A DNA stretch of 63,997 nt, counting the filler, from Ionaspis alba (Eukaryota): NCBI GenBank assembly GCA_964255285.1. It is 4 parts of 4 records of this genome, joined end to end, with 100 filler letters (N's around TTAATTAATTAA, not from the genome) between each part and the next. Parts side by side here need not be neighbours in the genome. Positions count along the whole stretch, not along the records: positions 51,054 to 63,997 come from CAXUUL010000482.1; 3 more parts are not named here. One strand, 5' to 3'. Of this stretch, positions 57,799 to 63,997 are shown piece after piece. A program made the position numbers and the translations under genes. How positions within the stretch are numbered: position 1 is the first letter of the stretch; the number at the start of each line of letters is the position of its first letter. Under the pieces are notes generated by a model, which was given only the letters and a program-made list of their open reading frames with translations, searched no databases and was not told where the DNA came from.

Positions 57799-59383
57799 GG
57801 ATGGTTGTCAGGAACAATGGTCTCCACTTAGCATTATTTGCAGCATAGCGATGGAGTTTACTTGCAGTAGCATCAGAGATGGTTGTTGAGGCGCAATGTG
57901 GATCTACAGGGGCATCTCAAAAAAGAAGTTTGGCCTAAGCATTACTATAGATCTATGCATGGCTTGCACGGCGATTGGATGTGAATCCATTCCGATCTGC
58001 TGCTCTCGGAAAGCATATCTACAATGTGTGTTTGAGAGTTGGATGGAGTAATTACGCGTGGCTCATCCACCACACTGCAAAGAGTTGCACCGGAGAGGCT
58101 CCGAGNNNNNNNNNNNNNNNNNNNNNNNNNNNNNNNNNNNNNNNNNNNNNNNNNNNNNNNNNNNNNNNNNNNNNNNNNNNNNNNNNNNNNNNNNNNNNNN
58201 NNNNNATTACGCGTGGCTCATCCACCACACTGCAAAGAGTTGCACCGGAGAGGCTCCGAGTAGTGGTGATTGGATCAAGCTGGCTTGGCATTGAAAGTGA
58301 GAAAGCCATAAGACGCACTCACATCCACCCGGATAAAAGCAGGGGTGGTCGTGGATGGTGAAGGATCACGGAGAGCAACTCCGCTGCCTAAATGGCTGAA
58401 TTGCCATGATAGTCACGATGGCAAAGTCATTGAGACTAGGGTCGTGATGATGGGAAAGCGAGTACTGAAGGTATACATTTTCTACCAATGATTTTTCTTT
58501 GCGCGAAAAAAATAATATAAATAGTGGAAATGCTTCAAAGAGTATGTAGACACCAGCCGTTGGTTCCACGCTGCCATAACCCTCACTAATTAAATAACTA
58601 ACACCTCGGCCTGTCAACAAGTAGTATCGTATTTTTCTGTCCGGTGGGTGCAGGAGCTGTATGGTGACATCATCGACCTGCCTTAGCCGGGGGACAGACG
58701 CACACAATTTGCAGTCGTAGAGCAGGCAAGCAGCCGCTTTGCACTAATAAGACCCATTCTCGGCTTTCGATCTGATACCGTCCCAGTAGAGTGACGCGAT
58801 CCTGGCAGAATTTGCGCTACGGCAAGGGCCATTGCGATCGAGCAGTGTCGTTGCTGGTGCATTCGGTCGGAGCACTAACTAAAGCAGGACTAAATGTGGC
58901 TCAATTGACCCTTCCGCCACAGCTCGGCGTCCGGACTTTCAAGGCTGCGATATCCTTGTGACTCTCTATTGCAGTCTTGTCGTCGTTGATTCAATAAGCC
59001 GTCGTTGTGATATTCTAAGCCGCTCGGTCTACCACACAGCGAGATCACGTTCACTTAAGGTCTATCAAAGAAGCTTGCTACACAAACTACGCACTATCCA
59101 CACTCATACACTCATACTCCTGTCATCATCTTTTCGCTGAATAAGTTGCTGCAGCAGTTGTTGCTAGAAACCACCGCATCGTACAGCCTCAAAAATACTT
59201 TGTCACACAAGGCGCAAATACAATTTCTAACGAAGATCCTCTTACTGGTATTGCACGACCACCGAACAGACCACATCTCCAATCAGCAGTCCTTGGAGAC
59301 AAACAACCACTTCCTCCACGATACTCCTGCACGATAAGAGTTGCATGGCGAAACAAAGCCAAGAAACTGCCATCTGAATACAG

Positions 59384-61428
59384 ATGAGTTTGTTCCATCG
59401 ACAAGGGTCAGCACTTCCCGCCCCTCTCGACGGACTTGAGGGGCAGGCCGCTTTGCAATCCGACAATTTGATGATTGGGAGCAATGAGAAAGCCGCCAAC
59501 CCACAACATCCTCCTGGCCTTGACCCTTACATTGATGCTAGGTCAATCATCCGGATCATCCAGTGCAAACAATGCTCTCTACCCATCCAGTCACCGATGA
59601 CCTTACCATGCGGCAATTCCATATGTCGAAAATGCCTTCCCGAACTTCACAAACGAGAGAACATCTCTTATCCTATGACACCCAGCCGGCAAGAAGGCTT
59701 CACCTGTCCATTTCCAGACTGTGGGCAAGACCACTCTCTCGGCGATTGCAGTCATGATGTTACATTGTCAAAAATATTAGAAAGAGTGGGCATAGAGATA
59801 GCACGCATCAGGCCTCTTACGAGCGAAACCCCGACGTTGCTGGATGAGAGACCGAAATGGAGGAATATTGTTGACAGCTCGGATCTGAAAGATCAGCCAT
59901 CGTCGAGGGTGCTACATGGAGGACGACTGGTTGCAACATATACAATGGCAGAGATAGGAGATCTGAGATACGATTCCGAGGTATCGTATCAGACCATGTC
60001 ACCCATTGCCGACAATTACCAGCATCTGGACATTGCCATGTTGGAGCACTTGAAGGAAGTGACAAGGAGTGAGCTGGATTGCCAAGTATGCTATGCTCTC
60101 ATGCTGGATCCACTCACGACTACCTGTGGACATACCTTCTGTCGCAAGTGTGTTGCTCGGGTACTGGATCATTCAAATCTCTGTCCCATCTGTCGCCGTA
60201 CTCTCCACATGCCTCCAGGTGTGCAGAACGAACCGAGCAACAAGCGTCTGTCTCAAATCCTCTTGAGCTTATGTCCCGAACATGTTGCTGCAAGAGCTGA
60301 AGCATCCGCCGAAGAAGAGGCTTCCATGTCAGGCGAACAGAGCATGCCGCTCTTCGTCTGTACCCTTGCCTATCCTTCCATGCCGACCTTCCTCCACGTC
60401 TTTGAGCCTCGATATAGACTCATGATGCGGCGAGCCATCGAGAGCGGAGACAGAAAATTCGGCATGATGCAATACAACCGACGAGGAGAGCCACAAGGCA
60501 ACCTCGGCCCCACACAATTCCTGGAATACGGCACCCTCCTCTACATCCTCAACATCCAACTCCTACCCGACGGCCGAAGTCTCGTCGAATCCGTCGGCGT
60601 CTCCCGTTTCCGCGTCAAAAGCTGGGCCATGCTAGACGGCTACGTAACCGGCAACATCGACCGCATCGACGACATCCCCCTGGCCGAAGAAGAGCACATC
60701 GAAGCGACCGAAGTTCGCAGCCACACCCCCAGCGACGATCCCCTCGCCCAACTAAACAGCATGTCAACGCGAGACCTACTACAAATCGGACTCGACTTCG
60801 TCGCCCGCATGCGCGCGGCCTCCGCCCCCTGGCTGCGGGACAACGTCATCGCCTCGTACGGATCTCCGCCCGACGACCCGGCTCTCTTCCCTTACTGGTT
60901 CGCCAGCATCCTGCCCATCAACGACGACGAGAAATACAAGCTTCTGCCGACCACGAGTGTCCGGGAACGCCTGAAGATTACTGCGCGCTGGGTGCGTAGG
61001 ATTGAGGCGCAACGATGGTTCGTCAAACTCTTTCCATGTCTTGCTACGCAGTCCCCCAAAGTCAATCCCTGAATTGGTTGTGCATTCTGCATCGCTGCCA
61101 CGTTCGTGAGTGAGTTCGAGCTCTTGTGCGAGATGCTTGAGTATTTTGCTCCGGTCTGACGGCTTGGTCTTGCGACTCTTGAAGGCCCTTACTCGAGCCG
61201 TTTGACTCTGACGATTTGGACTCGGATTCCGATGATGAATCCGACGACAACGACAACGACGACTATGACGGCTTCGTCGACGAGCCAGCCGACCAGGACC
61301 AGATTGAGCACCTCGCTACTGTTGCTGCGGCTGCGAACACAGTGACCACCAGTGCGCGATCTGAGAGCTCAAACTAACGCTTCCCCGTCTTCTGCAGGTC
61401 TTCGCATAGTGCCTGTACGGTTCTATGA
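59384..61428 (+). CDS. LONRF/CrgA-like RING ubiquitin ligase with LON substrate-binding domain
   Basis: Two RING-type fingers (CKQC..LPCGNSICRKC; CQVC...TTCGHTFCRKC...CPICR) and the LON-N motif PTFLHVFEPRYRLMMRR. Intron 61018-61397 leads to terminal exon WSSHSACTVL*. Confidence 0.92.
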
Positions 61429-62532
61429 CTAGCCGTTAGTTTCGCGATCGGCTTCGTGGCGTATTGGTTTGCTGTGCTTTCGAAGAGGAAGGAGGGGGAG
61501 ATTTGATGGAGGCTGAAGGGATGAGTTGATAGGAGGCATGGTGAAAGAAGGGGTGTTGTGGTGGGAGGAGGTGAGATGATTAGATGAATCTGTAGCTATG
61601 GAATGGCATGGGAGTAGCGTTTAAATTGGCATGGCTGCACGGCGAGGGAGTTTTTTTTTATATTTTTTTTTTGGCTTTTCGGGGGTGAGGAGATTTCATG
61701 GCATGAGATTGTATGGATGGGGTTTTCTTTGGGGCCTACGGTTTAGGACAGATGTGTCGATACCTCTTTCATTTGTTGCCTCTTGTGGTATGTGAGGCTT
61801 GCCTTTGAAATGGCTGGCTTGTATTGAGTGGTGGTTGTTGCTGTGCATTTGTTGGGAACTAGCCTGAGTTTAGGGGTTGCTGGATAAGCATGTCATTTAC
61901 TAAGCTCGATAGATAATGATATCTTGAGCGTTCATTGCTGTCATGCCTAAGGTGACCAAGAAGTCAGTATAAATAGAAACTTCTCTGGATCATGGTCTCT
62001 ACGCTCTCCGCTATGAGATAGATAGCGGAGATTCGCGATCATGCTTTTGGTCGTATCGTACTTTGGTGAGACGTGGTGAGAAGCACTACGAATTTAATGA
62101 GGCTAACTTGATGCCTCAACTCTGGGCCATGGTCACTGTCTTGATACTGGTAGCAGCCACAAGCTCTCTCTCTTCATAGATTGATTTCACCTGGCATGAG
62201 AATTGATGGTCTTCTACGTCGTCCCAATCAATGGTCTTAACTCACAAGTCGAACAAAAAGTCGTTCCAACAACCGTATACGACGATTTTCCAGGTCTTCC
62301 GTCCGGTTGTTTCTCTGATCTGGAATTGGTGAGCGCTGGTTTGATAATTTCAAGATCACCAAAGGGAGTAATATTGCTCGTCATAATTCAGTCAGAATTG
62401 TACTTCAGCTTTTACATGCAACGACTACATAGATAGCTGGTTACACAAAGGGCAGAGCATCAAAAAATGCACTCCGTATCTATCGTCGCCCCATCCCCAT
62501 CCCTATCCCCCACAACCACACACACCACCACA

Positions 62533-63137
62533 TCAACGATACGACTTCTGAAATCTCGACCTCGCGCCCTTTCCACCAAACTTCTTCGGCTCACACCGTC
62601 TATTATCCGCCACCAATAGCGTACGATCATATTGCACGAGGGTCTGCTTCAACTGATTCTTGGCATACTCGTCGATATATTTCTGGTAGTAGGCGACGAT
62701 GGATTTGGCAATGGCTTGGCGGATGGCGTAGATCTGGGAGGTGTGACCACCGCCCGTGACGCGGACGCGGATATCGACCATGGAGAATTTGTCGAGGCCG
62801 AGGAGGAGGAGAGGCTCGTAGACCTGTAGTGGGATGAGGGTTAGAGAGTCGTTCGTGGATGTGGAGTGAGGGAAGCCGAACCTTGAAACGGAGAATTTCG
62901 GGTTGCATGAGGGAGAGGGGTTTGCCATTGACTTTGACGAGACCTTTACCGGCCTGCAGATATCATGTGAGTTCTCTTGCCATAGTTGCGAGATTCGTAG
63001 GGAACCAAAATATACCTTGCAATGAGCCACCGCGGTTGCTACAGAGTGTTAGTTTGTTGCTCAATTCATCGTGGATATCATAGGCGCATACCGGTCTTCT
63101 TCTTGCCGAAACACTGCACACTCTGCGTGGAAGGCAT
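62533..63137 (-). CDS. RPS16: 40S ribosomal protein S16 (uS9)
   Basis: [33 protein letters not shown]...[17 protein letters not shown]...[19 protein letters not shown], with three introns. Confidence 0.98.
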
Positions 63138-63997
63138 CCTGGATAGATGACTTGCGCAGTAGTGATGGATAGAGTGAGTGCTGATTTAAGTCGATGGGAC
63201 TTCGATGAGGTCGGATTTTCGTGAGGATGTTAGCGTTGTGTGGACAGGGCTGACGCTCGCTTGAGAATTGGGCGCTAAGCAGTTTTAGACTGTTCGCCAT
63301 AACATTCTCCACGCAAATCCTACATTATATCTCGTGATACTACAGTGCCATGACTGAAGATGGCATGGCATAATGTTCAGAAGTGTCTACCTTTATTCGA
63401 GCAGGCCGTATGGCTGGGACGTCCTTTAACTAGACCACTGACATTCCAATATGCTCATCTATGAAGCAGCGCAGAGCCGTGCTCCTAAACGCCATGCCAT
63501 TAGCACTCCGTTCAACGGCCAAAGAAATACACATCATAGCGTGGCTTTGGCGATGATCGAGTCAGCTACATATCTCTGAAGCTATTGCAGCAATCCTTCT
63601 CGCCAATTATGAAACGGCGTGTTTGACGCGTATTGGGCGCAGCATACACAGCATGGGAATCCCTGCCAAATCCAGCAATTCCAAGACCAAAAGCCGCAGT
63701 GCCAGACCAGAGTGATTTGAAACGGAAATAGTGATCGATTCGGGCAAAGTATTGCTGTTGCAGTAGCCACTTAGAATTCATGGACATGTTTTTGGATCTT
63801 CGATATCATTGCAGAGAGGTAAAGTTTTCGAGCTATTCTAATCTTTGAGTTTCTCTGAGATGGAAGCTGCTGGTACTTTAGGTCAAGAACAGTCACGTGG
63901 GGTCGGCTGATTACGCGCAAGACATGCAACAAAACAGGGATTAAGAGCGGGTCGGTTCTGGATCTATCATCCCGTCTTCTGTCCCGATGCCAATCGC

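Follow-up and report, generated by a model that had tools for sequence, protein, structure and literature searches.

Splice signals at the 3′ end of a CrgA/CarS-type gene

The window, that is the whole stretch of DNA analysed here (63,997 nucleotides (nt) from Ionaspis alba, filler included), carries on its plus strand a gene for a ubiquitin-ligase-type regulator of the CrgA/CarS family, whose only intron holds one donor and two candidate acceptors. An earlier note on this DNA had proposed that these acceptors switch the C-terminus of the protein between a CaaX box and an acidic tail. As an interpretation of sequence, this proposal is supported by the comparison with related loci given below and by experiment in the Fusarium orthologue. 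The gene and the signals at its 3′ end are the following.

59384-61428, plus strand: CrgA/CarS-type ligase gene, from the start to the stop of the CaaX form (one ATG-initiated frame and one intron)
59384-61017, plus strand: exon 1, from Met1 to the first two bases of the Trp545 codon (single open frame)
61018-61023, plus strand: shared 5′ splice site GTTCGT, phase 2 in the Trp545 codon (direct reading)
61156-61160, plus strand: proximal branch-point motif CTGAC, branch A at 61159, 24 nt before the AG (direct reading)
61182-61184, plus strand: proximal 3′ splice site AAG, end of a 167-nt intron at 61018-61184 (direct reading)
61185-61377, plus strand: acidic terminal segment, in which G completes Trp545, followed by 63 codons and TAA (frame reading)
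61374-61378, plus strand: distal branch-point motif CTAAC, branch A at 61377, 19 nt before the AG (direct reading)
61395-61397, plus strand: distal 3′ splice site CAG, end of a 380-nt intron at 61018-61397 (direct reading)
61398-61428, plus strand: CaaX mini-exon, in which G completes Trp545, followed by SSHSACTVL and TGA at 61426-61428 (direct reading)

All the signals that the earlier note had named were recovered. The Trp545 codon (61016-61018) is split after its second base by the intron, with the donor TG/GTTCGT starting at 61018 in phase 2. The proximal acceptor (CTGAC at 61156, AAG ending at 61184) completes TGG through G61185 and opens a stop-free frame of 63 codons, PLLEPFDSDD...SESSN, whose TAA (61375-61377) lies inside the distal CTAAC. 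The distal acceptor (CTAAC, CAG ending at 61397) completes TGG through G61398 and gives WSSHSACTVL and a stop. The note had also called the intron long against a typical 50-60 nt; the two introns used for comparison, both in the neighbouring ribosomal protein uS9 gene, measure 62 and 58 nt, so that 380 nt is long for this genome.

Previous work on the orthologous carS gene of Fusarium fujikuroi has described three outcomes at its 3′-terminal intron, namely retention, a 168-bp proximal form and a 336-bp distal form, by RNA sequencing (RNA-seq) and reverse-transcription PCR (RT-PCR) (Ruger-Herreros et al. 2022, PMC9581392). According to the main text of that paper, the proximal form predominates in the dark, retention increases at 37-42 °C, and the two small exons are mutually exclusive.

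Conservation of the CaaX end

We compared the 3′ end of the gene with that of related loci, taken as the best 80 of 538 confirmed candidates from a scan of metagenome contigs. A phase-2 donor followed by a mini-exon of the type W-x(3-6)-C-a-a-[LMIFVA] and a stop was found in 62 of the 80, and eight more encode the CaaX end without an intron. Seven have the donor but no CaaX exon by our search rule, two of them being cut by the contig end and L040 having such an exon behind an AAG acceptor; the anchor motif is missing from the other three loci. Intron lengths range from 51 to 553 nt, and the last residue of the CaaX box is Leu in most loci. The intronless loci L051 and L056-L058 end in ...QRWYQSNACTVL and a stop, with the same last five residues, ACTVL, as the window's product. 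A C-x-x-x end is found in 45 of 150 proteins taken as representatives of clusters at 50% identity. The CaaX exon, whose conservation among orthologous loci the earlier note had proposed to test, is thus present, spliced or intronless, in 70 of 80, and this frequency argues that the Trp-split mini-exon with C-a-a-L is the ancestral C-terminus of the family and the distal junction the ancestral one. In I. alba, CTVL at 61414-61428 fits the pattern of geranylgeranyltransferase I (GGTase-I), with Cys at -4, an aliphatic residue at -2 and Leu at -1. It is the C-terminal Leu of a CaaX box that directs geranylgeranylation by this enzyme.

Predicted open reading frames (ORFs) of the 120 best homologues mostly miss this exon: 102 end precisely at the junction codon and 12 continue as W-Y-V, because TG/GTAAGT, TG/GTGAGT or TG/GTATGT is read unspliced, whereas two read WFVKLFPC (one of them the window's own P0001), one reads WYDCTIF and three have acidic tails. 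One lichen-fungus lineage at 72% identity (P0013 and P0274, one of them on a 13.9-kb contig) is intronless and ends in ...RWYDCTIF or ...RWYDCTIL and a stop; some close relatives have therefore lost both the intron and the alternative tail.

A second acceptor and an acidic frame recur in long introns

Thirty-nine introns of at least 201 nt were available (38 loci and the window), and 26 of them share a layout that runs from the donor over 40-150 nt to CTGAC, then to an AAG 12-28 nt on, an acidic frame, its stop, a CAG or TAG acceptor and the CaaX mini-exon. Counted as distinct sequences they number 18, from about 12 independent lineages, since L020/L025/L028, L009/L011 and L062/L065/L066 are close kin. 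A conserved acceptor or frame in orthologous introns was the test set by the earlier note, and it came out positive: CTGAC and AAG stand proximally in all 18 distinct introns and are followed in all 18 by a frame rich in Asp, Glu and Ser, in phase with the split Trp codon. Asp and Glu make up 15-39% and Lys and Arg 0-6% of these frames. The distal acceptor is CAG in nine and TAG in nine. Leaving aside the Dothideomycete group (L062, L065 and L066), 15 distinct two-acceptor introns remain, and in 14 of them the frame stops 20-32 nt before the distal acceptor.

The proximal acceptor was also predicted by a rule fixed beforehand, which takes the first internal CTRAC and then the first AG at least 8 nt past the branch A. 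For 15 of 15 distinct long introns outside the L062 group, the in-phase frame behind the predicted acceptor is the Asp/Glu-rich one. In L062, L065 and L066 the rule selects the first AG of GAGAAG, which makes TGA; there the frame is opened by the AAG that follows 3 nt later in the same phase.

The tail of the window begins W-PLLEPFD, and those of L019, L020, L025 and L028 begin W-PLEPELD/E if the in-frame TAG/G is used. Acidic tails after the same Arg-Trp or Arg-Cys also occur in gene models, which are predictions, from the lichen fungi Circinaria, Caloplaca, Bacidia and Agyrium (the lichen-fungus examples include P0005, P0116, P0120 and P0157), from Fonsecaea (Chaetothyriales) and from Cryoendolithus (Dothideomycetes). 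The proximal acceptor and the acidic frame recur in Lecanoromycetes and Dothideomycetes, and Hypocreales proteins have proximal tails of a non-CaaX kind.

Both junctions are found in contigs of a Dothideomycete relative

Locus L067 lacks exactly the GT...GAGAAG segment that is present in genomic L066 and L062, with GIFTPYD... following directly on its Trp. Among proteins from short contigs that are 97-100% identical to L066 exon 1, either junction occurs, the distal one, ...W/YQSNSCRIL, being found in P0277 (31 members) and P0285, and the proximal one, ...W/[FS]GIFTPYD...SDSE[IS], in P0278 (6 contigs), P0279, P0281 (13 contigs) and P0287. The closest named relatives of the L066 group are Dothideomycetes. 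In the genomic sequence the Trp is followed at once by a stop, so that the spliced contigs need the segment removed, and we infer that the short contigs with spliced junctions are transcript-derived.

Coding character of the acidic frame

The acidic tail of the window consists of 33% Asp+Glu and 19% Ser+Thr, is free of Cys and gave no Pfam match. Such a compositionally simple frame might owe its openness to chance, as a GAY-rich, low-complexity part of the intron, with the distal acceptor as the only one in use. We regard this explanation as very unlikely. The 189-nt frame of the window was open in only 4.3% of 2000 dinucleotide shuffles, and chance does not explain why the frame is in phase behind CTGAC and AAG in 18 of 18 distinct introns, nor why it ends at or just before the distal branch point in most of them. 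The proximal-junction contigs of the Dothideomycete also speak against it, as does the predominance of the proximal form in Fusarium kept in the dark, reported in the main text of PMC9581392.

Several observations nevertheless weigh against a splice switch, and some of them favour a chance frame. T-poor frames of 57-108 nt were open in 14-58% of shuffles, and often the +1 frame has no stop either. The amino acids appear barely constrained between L020 and L028, which differ at 14% of ORF bases and at 4% in the upstream part of the intron; their codons show 19 non-synonymous and 6 synonymous changes, with no excess at the third position (8, 11, 11). Contigs of run X1, the one sequencing run found to contain this stretch and not recorded as RNA, are DNA-like and unbroken across 60827-61188 and 61267-61826, with no joint in 61018-61428, and the transcript origin of the relatives' contigs is read from the missing segment only. 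The layout is missing from 13 of the 39 long introns, namely 12 loci of the 'IVYSWIGRIRGQRW' group and L068, and 22 of 23 introns of at most 173 nt have neither the layout nor an internal branch motif (in L061 there is an acidic frame of 9 codons). In 8 of 18 introns, C or T follows the proximal AAG, so that the split codon becomes Cys instead of Trp. Finally, the window's donor GTTCGT is atypical, with T at +3. Judged from the sequence comparison with these points included, the proximal acceptor and its acidic frame are nonetheless not a chance GAC repeat.

It could also be that the proximal splice is real and serves mainly to lower the amount of CaaX-ended mRNA, with the acidic peptide as tolerated filler or the mRNA as unproductive. 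The tail indeed evolves fast, cannot be aligned between orders and has more non-synonymous than synonymous changes in the closest pair; tails also differ wholly by class, being acidic in lichen fungi, GIFTPYDIYGIGG...SDSES in the Dothideomycete and TKLIHGRSG...SSD in Fusarium. Unproductive isoforms were raised as a possibility by the Fusarium authors themselves in their main text (PMC9581392). Filler, however, would not have to remain open as far as the distal branch point in about 12 lineages, and net charge and Ser content recur in all 18 introns, within the ranges given above. Three of four further pairs have an excess of changes at the third codon position (15, 16, 29; 4, 4, 10; and 3, 6, 9). 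Moreover, the proximal form was the one cloned as 'the' CarS protein (P0417), and a carS mutation was complemented according to excerpts of a review, which leave the isoform of the construct unspecified (PMC5715946). We consider the filler explanation unlikely.

A third model treats the acidic segment as an internal exon, joined by a second short intron to the CaaX mini-exon, so that one protein would have an acidic linker and a CaaX end. In keeping with this model, the two frames share one phase with respect to Trp545, and the end of the acidic frame comes shortly before the distal acceptor. It was rejected because usable phase-2 donors are absent from the 18 loci: a phase-2 GT with a donor-like hexamer occurs in none of them and five have no phase-2 GT at all, the sole candidate in the window being GTTTGA at the fifth codon. 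A second intron would also find no space, since the stop falls within the distal branch motif; L067 and P0278/P0279/P0281/P0287 terminate with the tail's own stop, and the Fusarium exons are mutually exclusive in the main-text account (PMC9581392). We give this model hardly any credence, and retain the reading in which two acceptors lead to two separate protein ends.

Further features of the long introns

In L020, L025 and L028, the intron upstream of the proximal acceptor is better conserved (4-16% mismatches) than the acidic frame (14-31%), a pattern that hints at a possible regulatory element in the proximal intron.

The long introns that lack the layout were inspected by eye in 11 of the 12 loci of the 'IVYSWIGRIRGQRW' group and in L068; the exception was L031, whose distal-exon end is identical to that of L022. 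An acidic frame is absent from this group (introns of 205-309 nt). The introns of L013, L023, L024, L027, L029, L033, L037 and L039 have a common block, CAACGGYGATCG, followed about 60-80 nt later by a box like TGATGACGA or TATGACGA, which is absent in L039; L022, L026 and L052 of the same group do not share the CAACGGYGATCG blocks. Rfam gave no match at gathering score in six loci of the group.

Two candidate roles for RNA in the window's intron were also rejected. The 380-nt intron folds no better than its shuffles (z = +0.59; 73 of 100 fold as well), which disfavours RNA structure as the selector of the splice site, and as to an intron-hosted small nucleolar or other RNA, Rfam returned for 60900-61700 only a sub-threshold match to a microRNA model (E=0.89).

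The comparison of run X1 with positions 58500-63900 of the window comprised 68 contigs, 27 of them at least 99% identical, 21 at 95-99% and 20 at 90-95%. Two contig versions were seen at several places, and the run therefore holds more than one related genotype. Among the differences listed for these contigs, none lies inside 61018-61428.

Intron retention and nested donor-like repeats

Two further features lie in the intron.

61018-61072, plus strand: retained-intron read-through FVKLFPCLATQSPKVNP, with TGA at 61070-61072 (frame reading)
61103-61115, plus strand: donor-like repeats GTTCGT/GTGAGT/GTGAGT (direct reading)

The donor stands at the same Trp codon in nearly all relatives, where the DNA reads GTAAGT, GTGAGT, GTATGT and similar. 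Retention of the intron in the window gives, as had been noted earlier, a third ending that starts FVKLFPC; it adds the 17 residues FVKLFPCLATQSPKVNP before the TGA. The two closest relatives, P0002 and P0275 (87% identity), have the same FVKLFPC and then diverge, length changes included, so the retention tail does not appear to be conserved as protein beyond seven residues.

The nested GTGAGT donors placed by the earlier note at about 61106-61110 were found at 61106 and 61110, together with a repeat of the donor's own hexamer, GTTCGT, at 61103, which overlaps the two GTGAGT 70-80 nt upstream of the proximal acceptor. Since these repeats lie downstream of the read-through stop (61070), they are unable to extend the coding frame. 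An intron from these repeats (61103-61115), GTGAGT...AAG, would have a typical size of 75-79 nt but no connection to the coding frame, and the repeats may be a decoy or a nested splice site.

Family membership and domains

Exon 1 can be aligned with relatives over residues 1-545 and encodes three domains.

59564-59734, plus strand: first Cys-rich RING-like finger, residues 61-117 (invariant Cys/His, alignment to CarS)
60080-60193, plus strand: second RING finger, residues 233-270 (Pfam zf-C3HC4_2, E=2.1e-13)
60344-60997, plus strand: LON N-terminal substrate-binding (PUA-like) domain, residues 321-538 (PF02190, E=5.4e-33)

In the first finger, C61, C64, C76, C81, C84, C108, C113 and H117 are invariant in alignment A1 (37 sequences), and this region is 38% identical to F. 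fujikuroi CarS. Pfam also reports a second, weaker zf-C3HC4_4 stretch whose position it does not give. Several Pfam RING models match residues 233-270, the lowest E value being 2e-13. BLASTP of the window protein (P0001) against F. fujikuroi CarS (P0417) gave E=2e-72 in two blocks of 45% and 38% identity. The best matches with a source name all come from lichen-forming or lichen-associated fungi (Circinaria, Toensbergia, Usnea, Letrouitia, Bachmanniomyces, Caloplaca and Bacidia). The gene has the LON N-terminal domain, the two N-terminal RING fingers and the C-terminal CaaX motif of the CrgA/CarS family; it is the CrgA/CarS orthologue of a lichen-forming ascomycete and codes for a RING + RING + LON-N regulator of ubiquitin-ligase type. 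The label LONRF/CrgA-like ligase that the earlier note had given is borne out by the RING match (Pfam E=2e-13), the LON-N match (PF02190) and the relation to CarS (E=2e-72).

The animal LONRF1-3 ligases likewise have one or more RING fingers followed by a LON N-terminal domain; to our knowledge they contain tetratricopeptide (TPR) repeats and have no CaaX end, unlike the window protein. Source names such as 'LON peptidase N-terminal domain and RING finger protein 1' occur among the protein matches. An ORF of 178 residues on the minus strand (60779-61315) is taken as antisense read-through of the coding sequence.

Neighbourhood of the gene

A ribosomal protein gene lies downstream.

62797-63119, minus strand: ribosomal protein uS9 (S16) gene with at least two short introns of 62 and 58 nt (sequence reading)

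Its second intron has the unusual donor GTCCGG. Within 58052-58261, one 55-nt sequence occurs twice, immediately before and immediately after a run of 100 N (58107-58206), and this looks like a scaffold gap with overlapping edges, that is, an assembly artefact.

Discussion

The intron of this CrgA/CarS gene, with its two competing branch-point and acceptor pairs, probably sets the ratio between a CaaX-ended and an acidic-tailed ligase. The two pairs would compete for the single donor. Use of the distal pair, CTAAC...CAG, would join the 9-codon mini-exon ending in CTVL, the Cys of which is expected to be geranylgeranylated, and use of the proximal pair, CTGAC...AAG, the weaker acceptor, would join the 63-codon acidic, Ser-rich tail. 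The acidic tail has no Cys, so that the proximal form could not be prenylated and would remain without a lipid. Retention would end the protein 17 unconserved residues further on. Which 3′ splice site is used would in this way set the ratio of lipid-anchorable to non-anchorable protein and thus the share of the ligase that is tethered to the membrane. In fungi, once a branch point has been chosen, the spliceosome as a rule splices to the first suitable AG behind it, and an AAG acceptor is weaker than a YAG one. Selection of the branch point is therefore the most probable step at which the choice falls, CTGAC with a weak AAG competing with CTAAC with a strong CAG. Both acceptors are presumably in use in this organism, and the two forms may differ in prenylation and in localisation or activity.

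If this is true, there are consequences for a studied regulator of light-induced carotenogenesis and secondary metabolism. Few splicing events are conserved across fungal classes with two protein forms, and here two ligase forms are predicted from one gene of a lichen fungus. For annotation, it matters that most database models of the family end at the Trp or in read-through. As a broader possibility, to which we give somewhat less than even weight, the intron would be an ancient Pezizomycotina switch of CrgA/CarS geranylgeranylation, shared by several classes, in which the prenylated form is kept at a membrane and the acidic or non-CaaX form can act freely on nuclear targets; the claim that CarS is without the isoprenylation site of CrgA would then be an artefact, the proximal isoform being the one cloned, and light, heat or developmental control of carotenoid and secondary metabolism would pass partly through splice choice.

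A comparable swap is known from mammalian Cdc42, where alternative C-terminal exons of two isoforms replace the last few residues likewise and change the lipid modification. Cdc42 belongs to an unrelated family and uses mutually exclusive animal exons, not two acceptors in one fungal intron.

The nearest known system is carS of F. fujikuroi. The genes are orthologous, their proteins being 45% identical in the LON-N domain and 38% in the N-terminal part, and in both the intron lies at the last Trp codon and has one donor, two acceptors and mutually exclusive ends, the intron lengths being 168/336 bp in F. fujikuroi, as given in the main text of PMC9581392, and 167/380 nt in the window. The Fusarium proximal tail has 18 residues and is mildly acidic, whereas that of the window has 63 residues with 33% Asp+Glu; furthermore, the Fusarium event has been shown in RNA and that of the window is known from sequence signals. 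The deposited F. fujikuroi CarS (P0417) ends in ...EWETSRW/TKLIHGRSGPSTAAQSSD, which is the proximal form, without CaaX. P0409 (51 members), near-identical to it in collinear blocks, ends in ...EWETSRW/SIHGCTIL. Of 117 matches from Hypocreales and other Sordariomycetes, 20 end in CaaX and five in a TKLI-type tail. P0417 also lacks about 60 residues around the second RING relative to P0409 (a mis-spliced block), and this gap agrees with a wrong intron assignment remarked on in excerpts of the review PMC5715946.

From these ends, the published carS isoform C (distal) would carry a CrgA-like CaaX box, and the comparison suggests the prenylation signal as the difference between Fusarium isoforms B and C. 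Excerpts of the same review state that an isoprenylation site is absent in CarS (PMC5715946); because P0409 ends in CTIL, that statement would be true of one isoform, the proximal one, only. The terms 'prenyl', 'CaaX' and 'farnesyl' are absent from the main text of PMC9581392, in which the isoform ends of Figure 7B are an image outside a text search. We found no paper that links alternative splicing of CarS or CrgA to prenylation, and no report of alternative splicing of the CrgA C-terminus, in the open-access papers searched, the original CrgA papers lying outside this scope. Two published carS primers matched none of the 80 related loci. The kind of event is thus already published for Fusarium carS and the window is a further case; the link to a CaaX switch and the spread over several classes of Pezizomycotina appear to be new.

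In Mucor circinelloides, CrgA represses light-induced carotenogenesis and requires its RING for function, as described in excerpts of the review, where repression of carotenogenesis and action on a White Collar protein are drawn from the genetics of Mucor and Fusarium (PMC5715946). The same source gives CrgA two Gln-rich regions and an isoprenylation motif, which stands at its C-terminus as CTVL does at the distal end of the window's protein.

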